Shown here: in pieces, positions 1 to 22,700 of the stretch
Layout: the number at the start of each line of letters is the position of its first letter
Position numbering within the stretch: the first letter of the stretch is position 1
Source of the DNA: a virus
Taxonomy: Duplodnaviria > Heunggongvirae > Uroviricota > Caudoviricetes
Reading direction: 5' to 3' (one strand)
Length of the DNA stretch: 64,000 nucleotides
Virus record (IMG/VR): IMGVR_UViG_3300011008_000003
Notes under the pieces: model-generated
The model's database searches: none
The model's input: only the letters and a program-made list of their open reading frames with translations
Told to the model about the DNA's origin: nothing
Program-made: the position numbers and the translations under genes

Positions 1-673
1 TAAGGCTATGCAGGGTATCGAAATGATGACTGAAATGATCAACGTGCTTCAGGCAGAAATGACCGCTGAAATGGACCGTGAAACTATCGGTCGTTGTAAG
101 TCTCTCTGCACACCGCGTATCTTCAACAAGTCTACCACGACTCTTAAGGACAACGACGGTTTCATTGGTACTAACTCTCAGGAACGTTTCGGTCTCATCA
201 TCACGCACATCATGAAGGGTGTTAACGACGTTCGTACTGCTACTCGTCGTGGCGCTGCTAACATTGCAGTTGTCTCCCCGGACGTTGCAACTGTTCTCCA
301 GTGCGCTAACCCGTGGTTCACCAAGGTTGCTCACGAAGTTAACGGTTCTGCTGTTACTCCGGAAATGGGTACTTTGAACGGCGTTGTTAAGGTCTTCTGT
401 GACCAGTACGCTGTTGATGAATTCGGTGCAAACGACAACGGTGAAGTTCTTCTTGCATTCAAGGGCTCTAGCCTCTATGATGCAGGTGTTATCTTCTGCC
501 CGTACGTTACCGGTGTTGTCAACCAGGCTATCGACCCGAACGACTTCAGTCCTCGCGTCGGTATCATGACTCGTTATGGCTTTGCTCATAACATGCTTGG
601 TGCTGAAAACTACTACCGCTTGCTCAAGTTCAACGGTCTGTTCGCTCAGGCTCCGGAAGAACTCGTTTGGTAA
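1..673 (+). CDS. putative major capsid protein, C-terminal part (5'-partial; reading frame open to window edge)
   Basis: ORF is open at position 1 in this frame. Followed by two strong rho-independent terminators, as expected for a highly expressed late gene. Shares a clear paralogous block (VRTATRRGAANIAV vs IRTSTRRSAANLIV, YYRLL vs YYIHL) with ORF 19579..20337. Family assignment is from recall of T4 gp23/gp24 paralogy, not a search. Confidence 0.45.
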   Translation, partial: KAMQGIEMMTEMINVLQAEMTAEMDRETIGRCKSLCTPRIFNKSTTTLKDNDGFIGTNSQERFGLIITHIMKGVNDVRTATRRGAANIAVVSPDVATVLQCANPWFTKVAHEVNGSAVTPEMGTLNGVVKVFCDQYAVDEFGANDNGEVLLAFKGSSLYDAGVIFCPYVTGVVNQAIDPNDFSPRVGIMTRYGFAHNMLGAENYYRLLKFNGLFAQAPEELVW

Positions 674-5214: not shown

Positions 5215-6141
5215 ATGTTTAATAAGTCCGCAGAACTTCGCGGTCATGGTGAAAAAATTGAAATGACCAAGGAACAGATGGATGAATTCATCAAATGTTC
5301 CAAGGATATATTTTATTTCTGCAAGTATTTCTATATCATTCAGGATAAGAAAGGTGCAGCGCCGATTGAACTCCGCGAATATCAAGAAAGAATTATTCAG
5401 ATGTTCCTTGCCACATATAAAGACAAGGAAGGTCATATAAGAAATAACAGAATTATTACTCTTGGTCGTCAGGGTGGTAAGACGACTATTTGTACGCTCT
5501 ACATTCTTTGGTACGCTTTATTTAACAAGGATAAAGAAATTGCTGTTCTGGCTAACAAGGAACAGCAAGCAAAAGAAATCATGCAGAGAATTAGAGCGGC
5601 AGTTTTGAAATTGCCTTTATGGCTACAGCAGGGAATTAACCCTGACCGTGGCGGTTGGTCAAAAGAATCGATTGGTTTTGATAATGGTTGTAAAATTTTC
5701 TGTGCCGCTTCTGGTTCGTCTGCAATTCGTGGTAGAACTGTTGACTTGATGTTGGTGGACGAATTTGCGTTCTTGCCTCCGGAAGATGCTGACGATTTTA
5801 TTAAGTCTGTGTTCCCGACACAATCTTCTCGTTCTGACGCTATGTTGATTCTGATTTCTACGCCGCATGGAATGAATCAGTTCTATAACATCTGGCAGAA
5901 GGCTGTTGCCGGTATTAATTCATTTGTTCCGGCAAAGGTTCAATGGAATGAAATTCCGGGTCGTGATGAAACGTTTAAGCAGAAGATGATTCGTGACCTT
6001 GGTATTCAGACATTCATGCAGGAATATGCTTGTCTGTGCCCTGATGAGAAAATAACGGTCAAGGATGAAGTATCTGGAATAGAAATAACTGACTCTATAG
6101 CTAAGATCTGTGAACTGTGGGAAGACGGGTTTATAAAATAG
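5215..6141 (+). CDS. terminase large subunit, ATPase domain only (T4 gp17 N-terminal domain-like)
   Basis: Walker A GRQGGKT, adenine-binding LREYQ, Walker B MLVDEFAF and STPHGMNQFYNIW block. Colinear with T4 gp17 from about residue 110 to about 360, then a stop. No nuclease-domain motifs follow. Confidence 0.8.
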   Translation: MFNKSAELRGHGEKIEMTKEQMDEFIKCSKDIFYFCKYFYIIQDKKGAAPIELREYQERIIQMFLATYKDKEGHIRNNRIITLGRQGGKTTICTLYILWYALFNKDKEIAVLANKEQQAKEIMQRIRAAVLKLPLWLQQGINPDRGGWSKESIGFDNGCKIFCAASGSSAIRGRTVDLMLVDEFAFLPPEDADDFIKSVFPTQSSRSDAMLILISTPHGMNQFYNIWQKAVAGINSFVPAKVQWNEIPGRDETFKQKMIRDLGIQTFMQEYACLCPDEKITVKDEVSGIEITDSIAKICELWEDGFIK

Positions 6142-13840: not shown

Positions 13841-15778
13841 AATATTAAAACGGTAAAGCTTTCTGACGCATATACTGTTAGAATCAAGATGGATGATAGC
13901 AGTGAATATAAGGAATTACCAGAATGTTTGAGTGTTTCTTTGCCTTCGTATAAGTATAAGGAAGAAATTTATAAGTACGGAAATAATGAGAAGAAATTCT
14001 TAATTCCGGACTATACAGGGCTTGAGGATTTAAGCCTTGACTTCATGGAAAATTATCGTGAAGATATGAAAGACTATGCTTATTTGCGAATACAGGACCT
14101 TGTTAATATCTTTCTTAATAGATTATATGACCCGACTGCGGGAGTAGCTAGTTATAATTTGACAGATTATATTAAAGAAATCGTAGTATCTGTCTATAAG
14201 AATAATTTTAGCAATGTTGTAATCGAGTATGTTTTTAACGATTTGAAACTTACCGATTATACAAAGTATGACCTTGACTATGCTGCTGCGGATATTGCCA
14301 AGTGGACATTGAAATTTTCATATCAGAGTTATTATGTTCAATTAGTAGAACAAGGTCCGTCTGCTGCAGAAATTGCTTATGCTGCAGGTGAAGCTCAGTA
14401 TAAGGCTATGCAGGAAGCTATGGCTCAGGCATATCGCGGCGGTCGCGGTGTAAGAACTCCGCATGAAGACCAGAATATGGCAAGGCGTCACGAAGAATCT
14501 CTCCGTAACGGCGAAAGTGCATTGGATAATGAAATTTCCGAGAAGAAGGAAGAACGTCAGCAGAAGCTTGATGAAATGCGTCAGCTTGAAATGAACGAAA
14601 ACAAAGTTTCTACGACGAAAGAAAAAGAAGCACTTGAAGCAGCACAGCAAAAGACTGAAGCGGCGGAACAGGCCGTAAGAGAAGCTGAGGCTAAGCAAGT
14701 CGCCAGAGAAACAGATTATAAGAATGCAGTCGAAAAACACGGCGAGGCTGTAAAGAATTATGAAGAAGGAAAGACCGAAGGTACTACCAGAAGATTACGT
14801 GAAAAGAATAGTGAATTGTATGATGCAGAACAGCTTGCCGCTGAAAATCGTAAAGCGGCTAATACTAATTTAAAAGCGGCTAATGCTGAATTGGCTGCGG
14901 CTCAAGAAGCTTTGGCTAAGGCTAAGGAAGAAGAAGCTGCCGCACAAGAAGCTTATGATAAGAAAACATGGTTGAATTCTGAAGAAAGAAAGCAGCAACA
15001 AATTGATAAGCTTGCTAGCGAAATTGACCAGATAAATGCTGAAATCACTGATTTGAATAGGCAGAAGCAAGAACAAATTGAAGTCGCACAGGAACAACAG
15101 AGTAGATTCCAGGCAGAACGTAATTCTATGTCTTCTGAACAGAAACTCCGTAATGCTAGGTATCAGGATTCTGCCGAACATGCTATATCTCTTAACGAGA
15201 CTGAATCTGTACGTGACGACTGGTCTGCCGCGGCTAAGGATAATGCGGAATCTGAAACTCATTCTATGAACCGTCAGCAGATGGTTGGCGAAGAAGGATT
15301 TATTAAGGACAGGGTTGAAGGTCGTCAGAAACGATTTGACGACAAGAAAGAAAGCAGAGCGTTCGCCGCCGAAGAAGCTTCCAGGATTGCACAGCAGGAA
15401 GCTATCCGTCCTGAACTTGCCGAACTTGAAGATATGGAACTTGACGATGATTCTAATAGTAATCCGGTCTATAATGGAATGTCTGAAACCGGTAAGAAGG
15501 TTATGGACATCGGATATGAAAATGCCAAAGCCGAAGCACAGGCGGAGCAGAAGTTTGCAGAAAAGGCAGGAGTTACTAAGACAACTACAGCCAATGGTGA
15601 ATATATAGAAGTAAAGAACGCTTCTGAGATAACTAATCATCCGGATTATCAGGAACGAGTAACAGCCTTGTCTATGGAAATGTATAAACCTGGAAAGAGT
15701 GATCCTCAGATGGTATACGAAAAGGCGCAGGCCCAGGCCATGCAGGAATATCTTGAAGGTAAATTGAAATTAAAATAA
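13811..15778 (+). CDS. long coiled-coil protein (E/A/K/Q-rich), late
   Basis: 655 aa. After a roughly 190-aa N-terminal domain the rest is heptad-like AEQAVREAEAKQ... low-complexity coiled coil. Confidence 0.5.
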   Translation: MSLCRIYEWQNIKTVKLSDAYTVRIKMDDSSEYKELPECLSVSLPSYKYKEEIYKYGNNEKKFLIPDYTGLEDLSLDFMENYREDMKDYAYLRIQDLVNIFLNRLYDPTAGVASYNLTDYIKEIVVSVYKNNFSNVVIEYVFNDLKLTDYTKYDLDYAAADIAKWTLKFSYQSYYVQLVEQGPSAAEIAYAAGEAQYKAMQEAMAQAYRGGRGVRTPHEDQNMARRHEESLRNGESALDNEISEKKEERQQKLDEMRQLEMNENKVSTTKEKEALEAAQQKTEAAEQAVREAEAKQVARETDYKNAVEKHGEAVKNYEEGKTEGTTRRLREKNSELYDAEQLAAENRKAANTNLKAANAELAAAQEALAKAKEEEAAAQEAYDKKTWLNSEERKQQQIDKLASEIDQINAEITDLNRQKQEQIEVAQEQQSRFQAERNSMSSEQKLRNARYQDSAEHAISLNETESVRDDWSAAAKDNAESETHSMNRQQMVGEEGFIKDRVEGRQKRFDDKKESRAFAAEEASRIAQQEAIRPELAELEDMELDDDSNSNPVYNGMSETGKKVMDIGYENAKAEAQAEQKFAEKAGVTKTTTANGEYIEVKNASEITNHPDYQERVTALSMEMYKPGKSDPQMVYEKAQAQAMQEYLEGKLKLK

Positions 15779-15801
15779 ATAAATAAGAAAAAGGATTTAC
15801 A

Positions 15802-16230
15802 ATGGAACAAGAACAATCATTTACCGCTTACTATGCTGAGACTAAGGATAACGAATTTCAGAGTTTGTATTCTTTCGCAGTCGATGCATTGACATTCTCT
15901 AACAAGATTAATATCTATCACTGGCAGTGTGAAAAGGGATTCATCCACACTCATCTTCAGGAAGTGTATGAAATCATTCGCGATTTCGCTGATGAACTTG
16001 TTGAGATTACGCTTGGAACTGGAACTGAATTCAAGATTGACGAAAAGACTTATAAGTTCTCTGACGAAATCTATAATGAAGAAAACATGCAGCGTAAGCT
16101 TCGTGCCTTTATTGATGCAGTCGAGAATCTTTCTAAGCAGTTCCAGAATAAGATTGCACTGAATAACCTTATGACAGATACGGTCCAGAAGCTTGAAAAG
16201 GAATACGGGCTGTTGACTCACTTCTCGTAA
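15802..16230 (+). CDS. hypothetical protein
   Basis: 142 aa ORF with AAGGA RBS. Confidence 0.5.
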   Translation: MEQEQSFTAYYAETKDNEFQSLYSFAVDALTFSNKINIYHWQCEKGFIHTHLQEVYEIIRDFADELVEITLGTGTEFKIDEKTYKFSDEIYNEENMQRKLRAFIDAVENLSKQFQNKIALNNLMTDTVQKLEKEYGLLTHFS

Positions 16231-16245
16231 TAGGAGTTTATATAA

Positions 16246-16400
16246 TGCGTGAATTGAACAGTGAAAATTTAGCACGTGCAAAAGAGATGCTCAAGAAGGC
16301 GGGATATGACGTGATTCGTAATTGTAACAGCGAAGTAAAGTCATTTGACCACGAGTCATTCCAGCAATATCTGGACCAGCACACAAGTAAAGAAATTTAG
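16246..16400 (+). CDS. small hypothetical protein (about 51 aa)
   Basis: ATG with GGAG RBS; ends just before the terminator hairpin. Confidence 0.3.
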
Positions 16401-16415
16401 AGCTTGAACTAGCTA

Positions 16416-16450
16416 TCGAGGACCGTTTTACACGGTCCTTTCTTTTTATT
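16416..16450 (+). terminator. intrinsic terminator (aggaccg-ttttaca-cggtcct + T-run)
   Basis: 7-bp GC-rich stem plus TTCTTTTTATT. Confidence 0.65.
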
Positions 16451-16751
16451 GATATTTACGGATTTTTTATTTTCTTTCCAAACGTTCAAAAAAATTTACT
16501 ATTTTTTGTTTCAAAGTTAAAGAGGTAAAACTATGATTAACGATAATAATTGGGAAGTCTGGCTGTACAATGCCATCTCACATATTCCTTCAAATGTCTC
16601 CCTTGGTGACGCTATGAAAGTCGAAGAAAAATTACGTGAAATTGTCCGTCAGGTGAGGACCACAGGATTATAAATAAAACACGCTCGAGAACTAATGTTG
16701 ATGTGTTATTGTGAATAGAATGTTTGTAGAGTGTTTATAGAAAGGAAATAT

Positions 16752-19223
16752 ATGATTAAAAACGTAATCAAACGAGATAATCGTAGACGTAAGTTTAATA
16801 TAGCAAAAGTATATACCGCAATTGAAAATGCATTTAAGTCGATAGATGAAAAATATACAGAAGAAGGTATTGATCAGCTTGTCGATGAAGTAGTTGAAAT
16901 AATTTCCGCAAATGATGCCAAGTCAGCAAGAGTCGAAGATATTCAGAATGTCATTGAAAAGACATTGATGAGTAAGGGTTTCGGTTCAGTTGCCAAGGCA
17001 TTTATTTTGTATAGAGACGAACGTAATCGTGCTCGTGAAACTAAGTCGGATATTGTAAAGACCATTAAGGAAATTACAGAATCTGATATTAAGAGTTCTA
17101 ATATTCTTCGTGACAATGCGAACGAATCCGGCGCTACTCCTGCTGGTACATACGGTAAGATTGCATCTGAAACAAACAAGATGTATAACTTGCTGAATAA
17201 CATCAACAGAAAGTATGCACAGGAACACAAGGATGGTCATTTACATATTCATGACCTCAACCAGTATAATTTGACTTTCAACTGTCTTTTTGCACCTGTT
17301 GGTAAGTTGCTGAAGACTGGTTTCGATTCCGGTACTGGTTATCTTCGTTCGCCGAAGTCTATTCAGACAGCTGCTGCATTGACTGCCGTTATTCTTCAGC
17401 TTCAGTCTAACCAGCAATACGGTGGTATCGCAGACGATAACCTCGATTTCGATTTGGCTCCGTTTGTCGATATTTCTTTTAGGAAGAATCTAAAGGAAGA
17501 ATTAGAAAGATATATTGAATACAATCCAGACCATGAAGAAATGACCAACCTTGATGAAGTTGCAACAGCTTCTATGAACTGGCCTTCTGCATTACTTTAT
17601 ACTAAGTTCCCTAAGATTTGTGTTATCAAGGCAATTCAGAAAACAGACGATGATACTCATCAGGCAATGGAAGGTCTTATTGGTAACTTGAATTCTCTCC
17701 AGTCTCGTTCTGGAAACCAGGTTCCTTTCAGTTCTTTGAATTTCGGTCTTAATACTTCTAATTGTGGTCGTATGATTAGCAAGAACCTTATCAAGTCCCA
17801 GATGGAAGGTCTCGGTGACGGTTTGACTGCTATTTTCCCGATTTTGATTTTCAAGTTGATGAAGGGTTATACAAAGAATCCGGAAGATCCGAACTATGAC
17901 TTGTATCTTGATTCTATCAAGTGCCTTGCCCGTCGTTTTTATCCGAACTTTGTAAAGGTTGACAGTTCTTTCAATAAGCCATACGTTAAGTATGAAACTA
18001 AGGAAATTGAAATTACTGAAAAAGCAATTGGTGTCAAGGTTCGTGGTAAAGACGAAGCAACAATTATTCCAATGCAAGATCAGAAGTTCGATAAGTTTGT
18101 TTATCAGTATGATGTAGGTCAAGGTGACTATTGGGAAATTGAAGAAATTTCCGGAAACGTATTGAAGTTAAAGAAGCTTATCGAAAATACGACGATTTCG
18201 ACCATGGGTTGTCGTACACGTGTAATTGGTAATATCAACGGTGCAGAACAGACAACTGGTCGTGGAAACTTCGCATTCCATACGATTAACTTGCCGCGCC
18301 TTGCTATTGAAACCCATATCGAAGCTAAGGATGAAGAAGGACGTAAGCAGTTGTTCTTCAAGAAGCTTGACGATATGCTTGAAGACGCCAAGGGTAGTTT
18401 GCTTGACCGTTTCTCTTTGATTTGTAATAAGACTTATGAGAATTTCCCGTTCACTATGCAACAGGGACTTTATCTCACGTCTGACGATGAACCGCATGCG
18501 GTTACTGATAAGATTGGTGAAGTTCTTAAACAGGCTTCGCTTTCTATCGGTTATGTCGGCTTGGCTGAAACAATGCTCTTGCTCACAGGTAAGACATACG
18601 GTATCGACCATGAAATTGACGATTACGCATTCTCTATCGTAAAGCATATCCGTGAATTTGTCGATAAGACTCAGAAGGAAACTCATCTTAACTGGTCTTG
18701 CTTCGCTACTCCGGCTGAAGCTGTTGCTGGTCGTTTCGCAAATATTGACAAGAACCTTTTCCAGAATGAAAAGAAGCTTGCCGATGTCGATTTACAGCGT
18801 GTCTTTGGTAAGGGTTATTACACGAATAGCCACATGCTTGATTATTCCTTGGAAACATCTTTGGAAAACAAGATTAAGATGGAAGCTCCGTACCATAAGA
18901 TTACGAACGCAGGTCATATCTTCTATTATAAGCTGAACGGTGATTTGTCTAAGAATCTTGAAGCGGTCAAGGCTACGATTGATGCCATGTACGACGGTGA
19001 CTTGGGATATTTCACTTGTACGTTCGACAGCGATACTTGTACCAAGTGTCATTTCCACGGTATCATCAATAACGAATGCCCGTGCTGTGGTAACAAGAAC
19101 GAAGACGAGATTATTCGTGTTAGAAGAATTACCGGATATTTGACTGGTTCGCCTAAGAAGACAATTTTCAAATCCTGGAACGATGGAAAATTGGCAGAAT
19201 TGAGAGACCGTCACAATATTTAA
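16752..19223 (+). CDS. nrdD: anaerobic ribonucleoside-triphosphate reductase (class III RNR)
   Basis: N-terminal ATP-cone (VIKRDNRRRKFNIAKVYTAIENAF). C-terminal zinc ribbon CTKCHFHG...CPCCGN and glycyl-radical motif RRITGYLTGS. The ATG at 16752 has AAAGGAAAT RBS; the tracked ORF begins at an upstream TTG. Confidence 0.9.
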   Translation: MIKNVIKRDNRRRKFNIAKVYTAIENAFKSIDEKYTEEGIDQLVDEVVEIISANDAKSARVEDIQNVIEKTLMSKGFGSVAKAFILYRDERNRARETKSDIVKTIKEITESDIKSSNILRDNANESGATPAGTYGKIASETNKMYNLLNNINRKYAQEHKDGHLHIHDLNQYNLTFNCLFAPVGKLLKTGFDSGTGYLRSPKSIQTAAALTAVILQLQSNQQYGGIADDNLDFDLAPFVDISFRKNLKEELERYIEYNPDHEEMTNLDEVATASMNWPSALLYTKFPKICVIKAIQKTDDDTHQAMEGLIGNLNSLQSRSGNQVPFSSLNFGLNTSNCGRMISKNLIKSQMEGLGDGLTAIFPILIFKLMKGYTKNPEDPNYDLYLDSIKCLARRFYPNFVKVDSSFNKPYVKYETKEIEITEKAIGVKVRGKDEATIIPMQDQKFDKFVYQYDVGQGDYWEIEEISGNVLKLKKLIENTTISTMGCRTRVIGNINGAEQTTGRGNFAFHTINLPRLAIETHIEAKDEEGRKQLFFKKLDDMLEDAKGSLLDRFSLICNKTYENFPFTMQQGLYLTSDDEPHAVTDKIGEVLKQASLSIGYVGLAETMLLLTGKTYGIDHEIDDYAFSIVKHIREFVDKTQKETHLNWSCFATPAEAVAGRFANIDKNLFQNEKKLADVDLQRVFGKGYYTNSHMLDYSLETSLENKIKMEAPYHKITNAGHIFYYKLNGDLSKNLEAVKATIDAMYDGDLGYFTCTFDSDTCTKCHFHGIINNECPCCGNKNEDEIIRVRRITGYLTGSPKKTIFKSWNDGKLAELRDRHNI

Positions 19224-19239
19224 TTGAAATATCAGATTA

Positions 19240-19276
19240 AAATCATACAGACCCAAAATCTGTATGATTTTTCTAT
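19240..19276 (+). terminator. intrinsic terminator (atcatacaga-cccaaaa-tctgtatgat + T-run)
   Basis: 10-bp perfect stem plus TTTTTCT after the nrdD stop. Confidence 0.7.
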
Positions 19277-19291
19277 CTTTATAAGGAATTT

Positions 19292-19582
19292 ATGTTAGAC
19301 ACAATAATGTTATTAATCGGATATACTGGGGCTTTGGCGTTCGCTGTCTGTTCATTGCCGCAGGTAATAAAGGCATATAAGACGAAATCAACCGGTGATA
19401 TAAGTATATTTTTTATTATACTTTCGATTATCGGAAACCTTTGCAGTGCTGCATATATTTTCTATACGAATTATATAAGCGGGATGTGGCAATATCCTCA
19501 ATATGTTAATTATACGTTGGCAACGATTTTTATATTCATCTTGCTTGGACTAAAACTTAAATACGATAAGGACAAAAAATGA
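19292..19582 (+). CDS. PQ-loop / SemiSWEET-like small membrane protein
   Basis: 96 aa with three predicted TM helices and the LPQVIKAYKTKS motif after TM1, as in PQ-loop repeat proteins. Overlaps the next ORF as ATGA. Confidence 0.5.
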   Translation: MLDTIMLLIGYTGALAFAVCSLPQVIKAYKTKSTGDISIFFIILSIIGNLCSAAYIFYTNYISGMWQYPQYVNYTLATIFIFILLGLKLKYDKDKK

Positions 19583-20337
19583 AAGCTACTGAAATGGTAA
19601 AGACAATTAACGTTAATGACTTGGAAGAAGGCTGCGCAAGGGTTTTGCGATATGTCATTAGTCGTTATGCAAAGCCGGTTGAAAAGTATGTTCAGGTCGG
19701 CAGTTTAAATGATTTGAAAGAAACAGAATCATCTTGCTGGCAAATAAACAATAATGTTGAATATATCTATTCAGATACTCCACAGCCTGGTTATGTACCG
19801 GAACGTAAATTGGGTTATGAACACCAGTATATTTTGGAATCGGATTGGATTCCATATACTACAAAAGAAGCTAAAATTGAAGCTATCTTTAATGCATGCA
19901 AGGATGTAGCCAAGAAAGTCATTTTAAAGCCGAATTTTGACGGTGTAACAAGTGCTCAGGAACGTGCTGCTGTATATTGTACTGAATTGATTAAATATTC
20001 TAATAATATTCGAACTTCTACAAGACGTTCTGCAGCTAATTTGATTGTCTGCAATGACTTGTTTATGGAAAAGCTCGAAAAGGAAACTATGGGATTTGGT
20101 ATTCCGTTCTTTAATAAGGCAGTAGACGGTTCTGAAATTCTTATGAATAATTGTATTCATATTGTCAAGTCCGGATTAAAAGGAGACAAGCCTGAAGCAA
20201 TCGTAACTTATGCAGGTGTAGCGCCTACAGATGGCGGTAATGTTCTTGTTGAAGATACCGAGAATCTTCGTTTTGCTATCGCTAACCGATTCTATAATTC
20301 TGACAAGTATTATATTCATTTAACAATGGAAGACTAA
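19579..20337 (+). CDS. truncated capsid-protein paralog (shares a block with ORF 8..673)
   Basis: IRTSTRRSAANLIVCN vs VRTATRRGAANIAVVS, plus QER and YY-L blocks, relative to the putative major capsid protein. Translationally coupled to both flanking genes. Confidence 0.5.
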   Translation: MKATEMVKTINVNDLEEGCARVLRYVISRYAKPVEKYVQVGSLNDLKETESSCWQINNNVEYIYSDTPQPGYVPERKLGYEHQYILESDWIPYTTKEAKIEAIFNACKDVAKKVILKPNFDGVTSAQERAAVYCTELIKYSNNIRTSTRRSAANLIVCNDLFMEKLEKETMGFGIPFFNKAVDGSEILMNNCIHIVKSGLKGDKPEAIVTYAGVAPTDGGNVLVEDTENLRFAIANRFYNSDKYYIHLTMED

Positions 20338-20837
20338 TGAATTACAGTAAGATTGACCCGATGAGTATTGTCGACGGTGAAGGTTGTCGTGTTACTCTGT
20401 TCGTTTCCGGTTGTAGGAATCATTGTAAGGGATGTTTTAATCCCGAAACATGGAATTTCGATTACGGCCAAACTTTCGATATGATTGCAGTGAACGAAAT
20501 CATCGAAGCCTGTAAGAAACCGTACATTTCTGGCTTGACTATTTTGGGCGGAGAACCGTTCGAAGTAGAAAACCAGCCGGCGATTGCTGATCTTATTCGT
20601 AAATTCAAGGAAGTTTTGCCTGAAAAGAATATCTGGATGTTTACTGGATATATTTACGAGAAAAATCTCAGAATGGGACAAAGCCAGTATCTTGTAGGAA
20701 TTACGGATTATATTCTGGAAAATACAGATATTTTGGTTGACGGACCATTTATTCTTGAAGAAAGAGACCTAAATCTGAAATTCTGTGGTAGTAGAAACCA
20801 ACGATTACTAAGCAAAGACGATAGAGCTAAGCTATAA
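20337..20837 (+). CDS. nrdG: anaerobic RNR activating enzyme (radical SAM)
   Basis: CRNHCKGC CxxxCxxC cluster near the N-terminus and 166 aa size typical of NrdG. Downstream of nrdD. Confidence 0.85.
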   Translation: MNYSKIDPMSIVDGEGCRVTLFVSGCRNHCKGCFNPETWNFDYGQTFDMIAVNEIIEACKKPYISGLTILGGEPFEVENQPAIADLIRKFKEVLPEKNIWMFTGYIYEKNLRMGQSQYLVGITDYILENTDILVDGPFILEERDLNLKFCGSRNQRLLSKDDRAKL

Positions 20838-20841
20838 GAGA

Positions 20842-20872
20842 AAACCGGAAGTAATTCCGGTTTTTATTTTAA
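20842..20872 (+). terminator. intrinsic terminator (ccggaa-gtaa-ttccgg + TTTTTATTTT)
   Basis: Same hairpin family as at 746 and 2918. Confidence 0.7.
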
Positions 20873-20892
20873 ATTCCCTTTCTGTAAATTCT

Positions 20893-20900
20893 TATAAATA
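20893..20900 (+). promoter_or_regulatory. TATAAATA late promoter
   Basis: Exact box 25 nt upstream of the ATG at 20925, with AAGGAA RBS. Confidence 0.5.
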
Positions 20901-20924
20901 ATAAAGAAAAAGGAATTTAAAGGT

Positions 20925-22700
20925 ATGATAGCTAAAGCTGGTCAAATAATTGCAATAGATTCTGTAAAAGTAGACAATACCTTATCAGGTGACGGTGTAA
21001 GAACACCGCTTGGTGTTAAAGCGACTGCTCCAGCCGTATCTGGCCATGCTGGTTTGAGCGCTGAAAAGGTAGATAATACCGTATATATCGGAATGGAACC
21101 TGGTGCTGTTAAGGTTGTTTCGACTAATGAATCAGTTTCCATTGAAAAAACAGTAAAATCTGATGGTACGGTTGAATATAATCTTGGTGTTTCTGATACG
21201 AAAATCATCGGATCTAACGGTATTAGTGCTCGAGAAACTGCACCAGCTACATATACTATTGGTGTTTCTGGTGATTATGTAAAGTCAGAAACATTGAATG
21301 ACTATTATACCAAAGACGACGCTAATGCAACTTTCCAGCCTAAAGGTGATTATGTTGAAGAGTCTGAAATACAAGATATGGCAACAGAAACTTGGGTTGG
21401 TGAACATTATGTTCCGAAAAATGTTTTAGAGAGCTATTATACAAAAGATGAAGTTTACAATAAGAATGAAACTTATAGTAAAGATGAAGTTTATACAAAA
21501 CAAGAAGTTAATGATTTAATTCCTGATACTAGTAACTTTGCGCTTTCTGCTGATGTAGATACAGCAATAAATGAAGCTGCTGATGATATTAGTGATTGGG
21601 TAGAACATAATTTCCAGGAAATTGGTGATTATGCATCAACTAGTGATGTTGAAACAGCAAGTGCTAATGCTTATGATAAAGCAGTTGCAAAAATTCCAGA
21701 TGTCACTAATTTTATAACGAAAGATGTTAATAATTTAACATATTATTATGATAAAACAGAAACTAGTAGCACTTCTGAAATTACAAATGCTTTAAGTACA
21801 AAACTTGATTCAACCGTAGCTGAGCAAACATATCAACCAATAGGAAATTATGCTACTACATCAGATATAAATGACATGGCTACGCAGACTTGGGTAGGAC
21901 AACAAGGCTATCTGACTTCTATTCCTAATACTTATGCTTTAAAAAGTGATGTTGAAGCAGCAAGTGCTAATGCTTATGATAAAGCAGTTGCAAAAATACC
22001 AAACGTTGATAATTTTATAACAAAAGACGTTAATGATTTAACATATTACTATAAGAAGACTGAAACTAGTGGTTCTACTGAATTATCTACTGAATTTGCA
22101 AAAAAGGTAAATAATCCTGATACGTCATTAACTGATAAGTATTTGGTATTAAGAACTGATACTAATGGAGCAGTTAGTGGTTGGTGTAATTTTAATGATA
22201 AGATATATTCTAAGTCTGAATCTGATGGCAGATATATGCAGAAAAATACAGATTCTACTTTATCAGGTGATGGTACTACAAATAGTCCACTTGGAATAGA
22301 TTCTGATAATTTCTACGAATTAGATACTGCTGGAAATTATTTGGCATCACAGACTTCTAATCAGAAAACGATTATTAGTACAACTCCTGCATTGGATAAC
22401 GCTATTAGTAGGGTTTCTACTTCAGCCGATGTTTGGGACACGGTGTCTGCGAAGTCTACCGTTACAGTAAATACGACAAATAATGAGATTAAAGTAAATA
22501 ATAATGCTAATAGTGCTATAAGTGCTGTATCGTATGACTTATGCGAAGTAGGTGAACCAGATTTGATACCGCAGAAAATGATAGTCGGTACTTCTTCTGG
22601 TGCATTTGTAAGCTATGTAACTGGCGGAAAATGTAATGGAATGGGTACATTGTTCTTCTGGCTTGAATCGCAGCAACCATGGAATCCTGTTAATGAATAG
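20925..22700 (+). CDS. tail fibre protein with internal roughly 100-aa repeat modules
   Basis: Repeated SDVE(T/A)ASANAYDKAVAKIP...NFITKDVN.LTYYY.KTETS and MAT(E/Q)TWVG modules. Late promoter upstream. Confidence 0.55.
   Translation: MIAKAGQIIAIDSVKVDNTLSGDGVRTPLGVKATAPAVSGHAGLSAEKVDNTVYIGMEPGAVKVVSTNESVSIEKTVKSDGTVEYNLGVSDTKIIGSNGISARETAPATYTIGVSGDYVKSETLNDYYTKDDANATFQPKGDYVEESEIQDMATETWVGEHYVPKNVLESYYTKDEVYNKNETYSKDEVYTKQEVNDLIPDTSNFALSADVDTAINEAADDISDWVEHNFQEIGDYASTSDVETASANAYDKAVAKIPDVTNFITKDVNNLTYYYDKTETSSTSEITNALSTKLDSTVAEQTYQPIGNYATTSDINDMATQTWVGQQGYLTSIPNTYALKSDVEAASANAYDKAVAKIPNVDNFITKDVNDLTYYYKKTETSGSTELSTEFAKKVNNPDTSLTDKYLVLRTDTNGAVSGWCNFNDKIYSKSESDGRYMQKNTDSTLSGDGTTNSPLGIDSDNFYELDTAGNYLASQTSNQKTIISTTPALDNAISRVSTSADVWDTVSAKSTVTVNTTNNEIKVNNNANSAISAVSYDLCEVGEPDLIPQKMIVGTSSGAFVSYVTGGKCNGMGTLFFWLESQQPWNPVNE

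Follow-up and report, generated by a model that had tools for sequence, protein, structure and literature searches.

In a T4-like gut or rumen phage of roughly 400 kb, a gene for a compact relative of the major capsid protein (MCP), here called mini-Gp23, lies within the operon for anaerobic ribonucleotide reductase. The core operon of this clade consists of nrdD, a SemiSWEET-like PQ-loop gene and nrdG, and mini-Gp23 is an accessory insert (Table 1; the window is the whole 64,000-nt stretch of DNA analysed). Comparisons among near-identical phages indicate that mini-Gp23 is dispensable and that its alleles are swapped fast. The explanation that best accommodates the locus as a whole, in which we place about even confidence, combines an nrdD-SemiSWEET-nrdG operon and its probable metabolite facilitator with an accessory MCP-derived protein that would engage binding partners of the MCP.

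Table 1. Features of the nrdD-nrdG locus and of the MCP gene at the left edge of the window.
Feature	Position	Strand	Support or remark
Gp23-type MCP, C-terminal 223 codons, cut by left window edge	2..673	+	Pfam Gp23 E=3.4e-39
TATAAATA, T4-late-promoter-like motif (putative)	16669..16676	+	75 nt 5′ of nrdD ATG
nrdD, class III (anaerobic) ribonucleotide reductase catalytic subunit	16752..19223	+	Pfam NRDD 5.5e-149
13-bp hairpin followed by T-tract, terminator-like or 5′-UTR element	19239..19271	+	terminator scan
PQ-loop/SemiSWEET homologue, 96 aa, three-TM, middle gene of operon	19292..19582	+	PF04193 E=6.1e-14
mini-Gp23, 252 aa, compact HK97-fold MCP paralogue between PQ-loop gene and nrdG	19579..20337	+	
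nrdG, radical-SAM activase of NrdD	20337..20837	+	Fer4_12 E=2.2e-47; TIGR02491 E=1.3e-48, above cut-off
Terminator-like hairpin at operon end	20840..20865	+	terminator scan

A preliminary description of this DNA had placed a PQ-loop-like gene and a capsid-protein paralogue between nrdD and nrdG, and this arrangement was confirmed. The nrdD product carries ATP-cone and glycyl-radical (Gly_radical) domains besides NRDD and exceeds the cut-off of TIGR02487; the program-predicted ORF (16731..19223) begins with GTG, while homologues, 87-96% identical among relatives, use the ATG at 16752, giving 823 aa. ATGA overlaps had been proposed at both ends of the capsid paralogue. Read directly from the sequence, the junction with the PQ-loop gene is indeed ATGA (19579-19582), but that with nrdG is TAATG, a 1-nt overlap of stop and start. 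The ribosome-binding site and translational coupling of mini-Gp23 are retained. An Rfam search of 15500..21500 gave no match, and no compositional anomaly was seen at the mini-Gp23 cassette.

The location of a capsid paralogue outside the head module, coupled to nrdG, was borne out, while its supposed co-expression with nucleotide metabolism has to be qualified, as the cluster has baseplate genes on one side and tail-fibre genes on the other and a late-type TATAAATA stands 5′ of nrdD. This motif occurs 32 times in the window (11 expected), usually 24-26 nt ahead of structural-gene starts, and its copy upstream of nrdD is a putative T4-late-type promoter; the next copy, at 20893, precedes a tail-fibre-like gene at 20925. 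The hairpin directly 5′ of the PQ-loop gene is conserved: over nine relatives 96.6% of cells were paired, with compensatory changes in four pairs, a score reached by 0 of 500 shuffles. It still adjoins the PQ-loop gene in one relative (L019) although a 637-aa gene has been inserted upstream.

The parent family of mini-Gp23 is the Gp23-type MCP. The MCP gene of this phage is represented in the window by a frame open from base 2, covering positions 165-371 of the 376 in the Pfam Gp23 profile; the listed ORF, 8..673, holds the C-terminal 221 aa. Its earlier identification as the MCP was right as to family, but it is the C-terminal part of a 439-aa protein and not a whole gene (full-length orthologues in relatives are 439 aa long and 90-99% identical). 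The sequence block that the preliminary description had seen in both proteins was recovered by BLASTP (16/34 identities, E=7e-8), and the match extends well beyond it. The mini-Gp23 family profile scored 60.9 bits against the MCP fragment, and the family HMM 58-78 bits against the clade's own 439-aa MCPs. By hhalign, residues 99-251 of mini-Gp23 aligned with MCP residues 240-427 (probability 99.2%, E=8e-20). A further stretch, residues 4-35, matched MCP 98-131 (E=0.003) and is colinear with this longer alignment; this part of the MCP aligns in turn with T4 gp23 residues 105-133. The top PDB matches of the family profile were T4 gp23. Against Pfam Gp23 (PF07068) the window protein scored 13.8 bits (E=0.038; gathering cut-off 24.4), and 15 of 18 family members matched, the best with E=1.9e-8 and two relatives just above the cut-off (25.8 and 24.5 bits). 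At the level of sequence, profile-profile comparison is decisive for homology between mini-Gp23 and the clade's MCP.

This alignment spans MCP residues 98-131 and 240-427 only. The N-terminal ~95 residues of the MCP (propeptide and N-arm) and the insertion domain are missing from mini-Gp23, which so departs from the full-length MCP architecture (propeptide, N-arm and insertion domain in about 420-520 aa). Retained are the Gp23 motifs IRTxTRRGAGN, the most conserved, DGG and a C-terminal YY. An AF2 model (pLDDT 86.7, pTM 0.81), for which the input alignment held mini sequences only and which replaced a discarded model from a shallower alignment (pLDDT 40), predicts a complete HK97 core with spine helix, A-domain and P-domain. 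The predicted fold is nearest to gp24 and gp23, nearer than to encapsulins. The earlier term truncated is imprecise for a protein that has lost the N-terminal region and the insertion domain but is predicted to retain its whole core.

Mini-Gp23 is a distinct short family, hitherto undescribed, of 190-252 aa, with members conserved down to 23% identity across phages. A word-index protein search found relatives of at least 86% identity only and the family profile added three; the family was revealed by an exhaustive HMMER search, with 15 non-repetitive matches, all of 192-252 aa. PHROGs, NCBIfam and PADLOC hold no family of its own for mini-Gp23, giving only weak matches to the 'major head protein' phrog_138. 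Searches of 50,697 GenBank phage records by tblastn with mini-Gp23 and two other members returned nothing, or weak matches to full-length capsid proteins, a metagenome scan for further loci added little, and no description of a truncated MCP paralogue was found in the literature. Since the family is confined to uncultivated gut and rumen jumbo phages, the functions proposed for it below are inferred.

The distribution of mini-Gp23 among close relatives is uneven. Several loci (L093-L096, L102, L106 and L108) have nrdD-PQ-nrdG without it; in the first four, the PQ-loop protein is 99% and NrdG 96-97% identical to those of the window, and across relatives without the gene NrdD is 92-93% and NrdG 96-97% identical. 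Absence was established within ±5-10 kb of the locus, and a pattern scan of low sensitivity detected no copy elsewhere in these relatives of about 291-424 kb. Other loci, L013-L019 among them, have two mini-Gp23 paralogues flanking nrdG, only 24-44% identical to the window protein, with NrdD 94-96% identical. Phages with NrdD 92-96% identical may thus have no mini-Gp23, the 252-aa allele or two paralogues. The MCP could be compared as well in one two-copy relative only, a 415-kb contig, where it is 94% identical to that of the window. The cassette junctions are gene-exact, with ATGAA at either end. In some relatives a second radical-SAM gene adjoins mini-Gp23. The same hotspot has also received a 196-aa ORF and a 637-aa zinc-finger ORF, and an HNH-like ORF lies nearby. 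Distant members always have a non-head setting among replication and nucleotide-metabolism genes: the order mini-nrdG-mini in L090, neighbours dUTPase, gp32, UvsX and a nuclease in L091, and DHFR and helicase in L008-L010. The dN/dS of mini-Gp23 is 0.20-0.31, against 0.04-0.16 for nrdD and nrdG, which shows that the protein is functional, and its frame is intact in more than 100 cluster members.

Unlike an MCP, then, mini-Gp23 is encoded outside the head module and is missing from relatives. Its presence/absence pattern and rapid allele exchange argue against a core shell or vertex subunit. An essential gp24-like vertex protein was rejected on these grounds, and the earlier suggestion of a minor vertex protein resembling T4 gp24 found no support, given its absence from close relatives, its replacement by alleles of 24-44% identity or by two paralogues in a backbone 92-96% identical, and the loss of N-arm and insertion domain.

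We propose instead that an MCP-derived gene was inserted gene-exactly between the PQ-loop gene and nrdG, and that its product may act as a soluble mimic of monomeric MCP, binding some partner that normally binds the MCP. Direct recognition of the capsid fold has lately been demonstrated for several bacterial immune receptors, and mini-Gp23 is therefore a testable candidate for counter-defence or assembly interference. The most plausible partners would be host immune sensors of the HK97 fold or A-domain; alternatively, mini-Gp23 might bind the MCP itself or the factors that fold and assemble it. Given such a role, an arms race would account for the variable alleles and paralogues. The sensors Avs7, Avs8, Avs10 and Dsr1 wrap the HK97 fold and contact the A-domain (bioRxiv 10.64898/2026.01.04.697583). 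In its most specific form, which we hold to be improbable, the proposal would make mini-Gp23 the first phage trigger mimic, occupying immune sensors of the HK97 fold, A-domain or conserved strand without activating them; candidate sensors are Avs7, Avs8, Avs10, Dsr1, type I Thoeris and CapRel- or Lit-like systems. Were this true, allele turnover, paralogue pairs and presence/absence would track the host defence repertoire. Against a decoy, a mimic of the trigger might switch sensors on instead of blocking them. No capsid-fold anti-defence protein was found in the literature, and the word 'capsid' does not appear in the text of the EVADES survey (268 proteins).

Among the rival explanations, that of a non-essential virion component, a minor capsid, vertex or decoration-like protein, is rather unlikely. 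Such a protein would join the MCP in the shell by its retained A- and P-domain surfaces, in the manner of T4 gp24, and, being optional like Hoc and Soc, would differ from strain to strain. An HK97 fold nearest to gp24 and gp23 would suit it, as would the position of the operon between baseplate and tail-fibre genes and the late-type TATAAATA 5′ of nrdD; in addition, a search of the 64-kb window and of the 10 kb around the MCP gene turned up no further, full-length paralogue of the gp24 type. A virion role is hard to reconcile, however, with a gene that is missing where the PQ-loop protein and NrdG are nearly identical, that diverges to 24-44% identity although the MCP is 94% identical (in the one relative compared), that occurs as two paralogues in some genomes and that sits in replication and nucleotide-metabolism modules in distant phages. 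In the T4 capsid, moreover, the N-terminal arm or propeptide and the insertion domain tie capsomers together, and mini-Gp23 lacks these mediators of inter-capsomer contacts.

The same combination, with the capsomer-forming A-domain and IRTxTRRGAGN kept and the inter-capsomer elements lost, would fit a modulator of capsid assembly, whether of the phage itself, a co-infecting phage or a satellite. It would insert into capsomers or cap them, whether to chaperone them, to regulate capsid size or assembly, or as a dominant-negative 'capsid poison'. Allele turnover suits such a conflict, but MCPs are 90-99% identical across alleles, and it is hard to picture how single alleles could target competitors without self-poisoning; we consider this reading improbable too. 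Far less probable is an encapsulin-like nanocompartment or ring sheltering the oxygen-sensitive NrdD, NrdG or radical-SAM enzymes. Its appeal is that mini-Gp23 repeatedly adjoins nrdG and, in some relatives, the second radical-SAM gene; yet other members lie far from nrd genes, the protein resembles gp23 and gp24 more than it does encapsulins and has no N-arm, and no cargo tag or dependence is evident, because NrdD (92-93% identical) and NrdG (96-97%) are essentially unchanged in relatives without it. A remnant of capsid-gene duplication, decaying or without function and kept as a passive passenger, might be expected of a shortened paralogue in a variable hotspot with 196-aa and 637-aa insertions, but this hardly credible reading was rejected on dN/dS, intact frames and the confident fold prediction, and it is at odds with a 190-252-aa family conserved down to 23% identity and with the retained ribosome-binding site and translational coupling.

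The PQ-loop/SemiSWEET gene is the conserved partner of nrdD and nrdG, accompanying nrdG in every relative, in one with the order nrdD-nrdG-PQ, and its dN/dS is 0-0.06. Its product had been described as PQ-loop-like, with three transmembrane helices and an LPQ motif, all of which was confirmed: it matches PF04193 with 52 bits (cut-off 22), has hydrophobic stretches at about residues 1-28, 33-58 and 70-91, and carries SLPQ at residues 21-24. Among solved structures, those of SemiSWEETs come closest to it (4RNG, E=8e-5, full-length alignment), and it has the SemiSWEET form, a three-helix bundle of about 90-100 aa with the PQ motif in TM1, while scoring below the NCBIfam SemiSWEET_2 threshold (30.6 vs 80 bits). 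The sugar pocket of SemiSWEETs contains a Trp in TM2 and an Asn in TM3; in the 4RNG alignment Tyr55 occupies the Trp column, and the invariant Asn73 lies one position off the Asn column. PQ(Y/F)VNYTLAT forms a second conserved motif. No match was found by tblastn in GenBank phage records, and a genome scan yielded only phage contigs mis-binned as Methanobrevibacter MAGs and distant homologues; homologues outside the clade are not adjacent to nrd genes. The literature searched contained no description of a phage SemiSWEET. The strict linkage to nrdD-nrdG favours a transporter over the holin-like membrane protein that had been named as the alternative. By analogy with PnuN, we take the protein to be, most likely, a dimeric facilitator of the SemiSWEET type for a small metabolite in dNTP supply, an idea grounded in synteny within this clade. 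One possibility is a phage-encoded (deoxy)nucleoside facilitator. Deoxynucleoside import is predicted for PnuN, a SWEET-fold transporter whose gene is linked to nrd genes (PMC7749635, after Rodionov and Gelfand 2005).

Independently of mini-Gp23, the conserved SemiSWEET coupled to nrdG hints at phage-directed metabolite transport tied to anaerobic dNTP synthesis. To our knowledge, HK97-fold proteins are known almost only as shells, encapsulins and a few satellite capsid-size factors being the exceptions. Here a phage appears to keep one or two reduced, fast-evolving, dispensable copies of its capsid protein in a non-head operon, the genomic pattern typical of a conflict gene. Structural studies could also use mini-Gp23 as a soluble HK97 core of minimal size.

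Known systems resemble this locus in part. T4 gp24 is a near-full-length MCP paralogue encoded beside the MCP and forms pentons, and Hoc and Soc are optional capsid proteins of T4. Mini-Gp23 is homologous to gp23 and gp24 over its C-terminal ~165 residues and an N-terminal strand of the LVGVQ...FALRY type, but it is about half their size (190-252 vs 439-521 aa), lacks the propeptide, N-arm and insertion domain of gp23, is encoded 19 kb away from the MCP gene in the window and not in the head module, and is dispensable and hypervariable, with as many as two copies around nrdG. The accessory protein Ccm of SaPIbov5, an MCP homologue with the HK97 fold, redirects capsid size, and a role of mini-Gp23 in modulating assembly would be comparable in principle; Ccm is satellite-encoded, near full length and built into the procapsid, whereas mini-Gp23 is the phage's own gene and much reduced. 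Encapsulins are cellular and have an N-arm or N-helix and cargo-loading peptides, while mini-Gp23 stands nearest to the capsid proteins of the T4 type and shares neither cellular origin nor cargo with a targeting peptide. The PQ-loop protein, like the bacterial SemiSWEETs of Thermodesulfovibrio yellowstonii (4RNG) and Leptospira biflexa (4QNC), has ~90-100 aa, three TM and PQ in TM1, but differs in being phage-encoded, with Tyr for the TM2 Trp and the additional PQ(Y/F)VNYTLAT, and, unlike these and PnuN, its gene is coupled translationally to nrdG. Finally, T4-like genomes have a 'plastic periphery', in which core genes, frequently those near nrd genes, are separated by free-standing ORFs of accessory or mobile kind. 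The mini-Gp23 cassette has in common with it a gene-exact presence/absence polymorphism between core genes, but codes for a capsid-fold protein instead of a nuclease or one of the usual small ORFs.

The 252-aa protein encoded between nrdD and nrdG had been noted to share a sequence block with the putative major capsid protein (MCP), and pairwise BLASTP bore this out (34 residues, 47% identity, E=7e-8). Alone, the protein scored a sub-threshold 13.8 bits against Pfam Gp23. When 1.84 billion representatives were searched exhaustively with HMMER, 16 matches were obtained, all of 192-252 aa except one repetitive protein of 1,783 aa; these are a family of short proteins, here called mini-Gp23, rather than a one-off truncation. 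Pfam Gp23 was matched by 15 of 18 aligned members (best E=1.9e-8). T4 gp23 filled the first four places among PDB matches of the profile made from this alignment, and the corresponding HMM gave the clade's MCPs 58-78 bits and the window's MCP fragment 60.9; secondary matches of the reciprocal MCP HMM were mini proteins only. By hhalign, mini residues 99-251 were matched to MCP residues 240-427 (probability 99.2%, E=8e-20), while residues 4-35 align best, and colinearly, to MCP 98-131 (...LVGVQP...FALRY...; E=0.003), a stretch that aligns in turn to T4 gp23 residues 105-133 and overlaps the Gol region of gp23. An AlphaFold2 model built from an alignment of mini sequences only (pLDDT 86.7, pTM 0.81) was searched with Foldseek; its top 17 PDB matches were all phage capsid shell or vertex proteins (E~1e-6), 15 of them T4 gp23 or gp24 chains. 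Alignments and model together predict a compact MCP paralogue with the HK97 fold that retains the spine helix, A-domain, P-domain core and a beta-hairpin and lacks both the first ~95 residues of the MCP (propeptide and N-arm) and the insertion domain.

No Pfam (beyond the weak Gp23 matches), PHROG, NCBIfam or PADLOC family covers mini-Gp23, no member was found among cultured phages in the GenBank phage records searched, and no description of such MCP paralogues, or of capsid-fold anti-defence proteins, was found in the literature. Among BFVD entries are a small number of unstudied viral proteins that are short and HK97-like; one example is a 'major capsid protein' of 191 aa on a gut myovirus contig. 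Mini-Gp23 belongs to the HK97/Gp23 superfamily, in which both its architecture and its genomic behaviour are new.

The MCP fragment, whose full-length orthologues on related contigs have 439 aa, is at most 37% identical to the closest MCP among 50,697 GenBank phage records, and 90-99% identical to MCPs of IMG/VR contigs, the longest of them 424 kb. A 399-kb contig carries a 252-aa protein identical to the window's copy, and source names of related contigs indicate the ruminant gut (bovine, goat, yak). The T4 late-promoter motif TATAAATA occurs 32 times in the window (11 expected), mostly 24-26 nt upstream of structural-gene start codons, implying gp55-type late transcription in a jumbo phage. 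Taken together, MCP identities, large related contigs, gut sources and late motif indicate that the window is part of an uncultivated T4-like jumbo phage genome. Its terminase-large-subunit-like ORF matches the C-terminal half of TerL profiles only (phrog_5989 positions 97-343; phrog_2 positions 259-457 of 807), and TerL may be split or interrupted in this phage. Two related 173-191 kb contigs with an nrdD-PQ-mini-nrdG-mini locus (L111 and L112; JAFQXD010000042.1, JAFRFB010000097.1) entered the database as goat-gut MAGs of Methanobrevibacter sp., an assignment that is almost certainly a binning artefact.

In the window, nrdD, the 96-aa PQ-loop ORF, the mini-Gp23 gene and nrdG are consecutive on the same strand, and AAGGA-like ribosome-binding sites precede all three genes downstream of nrdD. 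The preliminary description placed ATGA overlaps at both internal junctions; that between the PQ-loop and mini-Gp23 genes is a true ATGA, whereas mini-Gp23 and nrdG overlap by one base (TAATG). The nrdD product also contains ATP-cone and glycyl-radical domains (Pfam). An insert between its two Pfam NRDD-matching stretches is far more variable among relatives than the remainder of NrdD. The DUF5856/Dps-like gene is kept upstream of nrdD in L001, L002 and L004 and might be functionally connected with the Fe-S and radical enzymes.

Features of the window and of related loci on other contigs (L001-L112)
Feature	Position or loci	Strand	Basis or remark
MCP fragment	8..673	+	C-terminal 221 residues; Pfam Gp23 3.4e-39; frame open to window's left edge
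TATAAATA sites, examples	1267, 2199, 5182, 20893, 29854, 47463		Motif scan of window
TerL-like ORF	5215..6141	+	Just 308 aa
DUF5856/Dps-like (ferritin-like) gene	15802..16230	+	142 aa
nrdD	16731..19223	+	Mechanical ORF from GTG; ATG 16752 in relatives' calls; Pfam NRDD 5.5e-149
NrdD insert	about 18020..18200		~60 aa, residues about 423-483
13-bp hairpin + T-tract	19239-19271		Directly upstream of PQ-loop gene
PQ-loop gene	19292..19582	+	96 aa; PF04193 match
mini-Gp23 gene	19579..20337	+	252 aa; MCP homology
nrdG	20337..20837	+	TIGR02491, E=1.3e-48
Empty slot	L093-L096		PQ and nrdG overlap by ATGA; PQ 99%, NrdG 96-97% identical to window
252-aa allele in slot	window, L001, L004-L007; also L002, L003		L002, L003 with extra 196-aa ORF
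'Type B' (216-219 aa) in slot, 'type A' (215-223 aa) just after nrdG	L013-L019, L098-L100, L103-L105, L107, L111, L112
Distant mini	L090		Order mini-nrdG-mini
Distant mini	L091		Between dUTPase-like gene and PD-(D/E)XK nuclease; UvsX, DnaB-type helicase, gp32 nearby
Distant mini	L008-L010 (267-kb contig)		Adjoins DHFR and Dda-like helicase
196-aa ORF	L002:10778-11368, L003:3963-4553		Between mini gene and nrdG
637-aa ORF	L019:2568-4481 (= L107)		C2H2 zinc finger + DUF7487; between nrdD and PQ
309-aa radical-SAM protein	L013:6164-7093, L014:6538-7467, L019:6642-7571		Directly after second mini gene
PQ-loop homologue	L109:6001-6282		44% identical

The site between the PQ-loop gene and nrdG was compared among contigs with NrdD 92-96% identical to the window's and was found in three states: empty, holding the 252-aa allele, or associated with two paralogues. 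It is empty too in L102, L106 and L108 (NrdD 83-87% identical). The mini gene is inserted gene-exactly, each junction reading ATGAA. A 415-kb contig has an MCP 94% and a NrdD 96% identical to the window's, and two minis 42% and about 24% identical. Close alleles gave dN/dS values of 0.20-0.31 (nrdD 0.04-0.16, nrdG 0.04-0.12, PQ-loop gene 0-0.06), and the frame is intact across a 104-member cluster (90% identity); the gene is thus functional despite its variable presence, and an inert remnant is the last-ranked explanation. No distant member lies within a head module. Mini-Gp23 thus appears to be an accessory, fast-replaced and dispensable cassette rather than a core structural gene. The 196-aa ORF has no match in Pfam, PHROG or PADLOC; in L013-L016 nrdD is preceded by an HNH-like ORF of 160 aa. 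The nrd region is an insertion hotspot. The 309-aa protein, which has a CxxxCxxC motif and weakly resembles NrdG, QueE and viperin models, is found in relatives with two mini-Gp23 genes and is absent from the window.

Unlike the MCP, mini-Gp23 would lack the elements locking capsomers into the lattice while keeping the capsomer-forming A-domain and conserved N-terminal strand, and the inference we favour is a soluble mimic of the MCP engaging partners that bind the MCP. Host immune sensors rank first among such partners: according to a recent report (bioRxiv 10.64898/2026.01.04.697583), the Avs7, Avs8, Avs10 and Dsr1 receptors enclose the HK97 fold and touch the A-domain, and the population-genetic behaviour of mini-Gp23 is that of a conflict gene, so that interference with such sensors would be the leading reading. 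An optional virion component ranks second; no full-length gp24-like paralogue was seen in the window or within 10 kb of the MCP gene. An assembly modulator or capsid poison comes third and an encapsulin-like compartment fourth. Despite its coupling to nrd genes, mini-Gp23 sits in this window in an operon surrounded by late genes, and nrdD is preceded by a late-type motif.

Nine relatives keep the hairpin upstream of the PQ-loop gene, four of its pairs showing compensatory changes; it stays attached to that gene in L019 despite the 637-aa ORF inserted after nrdD, and could be a terminator, attenuator or 5′-UTR element. The 96-aa product itself is a PQ-loop homologue, as proposed earlier, matching PF04193 well over threshold, with three hydrophobic helices and the LPQ motif (as SLPQ) in TM1. 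Its gene is under very strong purifying selection and accompanies nrdG in every relative compared. On the 424-kb contig L101 (IMGVR_UViG_3300037455_000543; MCP 90% identical) the order is nrdD-nrdG-PQ, nrdG and PQ overlap, and NrdD is of a different type (716 aa, 22% identity); the PQ-nrdG linkage has outlived nrdD replacement, and the PQ-loop gene is the conserved partner of nrdD-nrdG. Homologues outside the clade (38-62% identity) do not adjoin nrd genes. The homologue on the unrelated phage contig L109 follows tail genes between a SprT-like 246-aa ORF and a 113-aa ORF, a lysis-cassette-like layout that makes holin-like use of the fold possible in some phages. The best solved relatives of the window's protein are SemiSWEETs (4RNG, E=8e-5, full-length alignment), from which it differs in falling under the NCBIfam SemiSWEET cut-off and in having Tyr at the pocket Trp column. 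Its nearest functional precedent is PnuN, a transporter of the SWEET fold whose gene is linked to those of ribonucleotide reductase and whose predicted role is deoxynucleoside import (PMC7749635).
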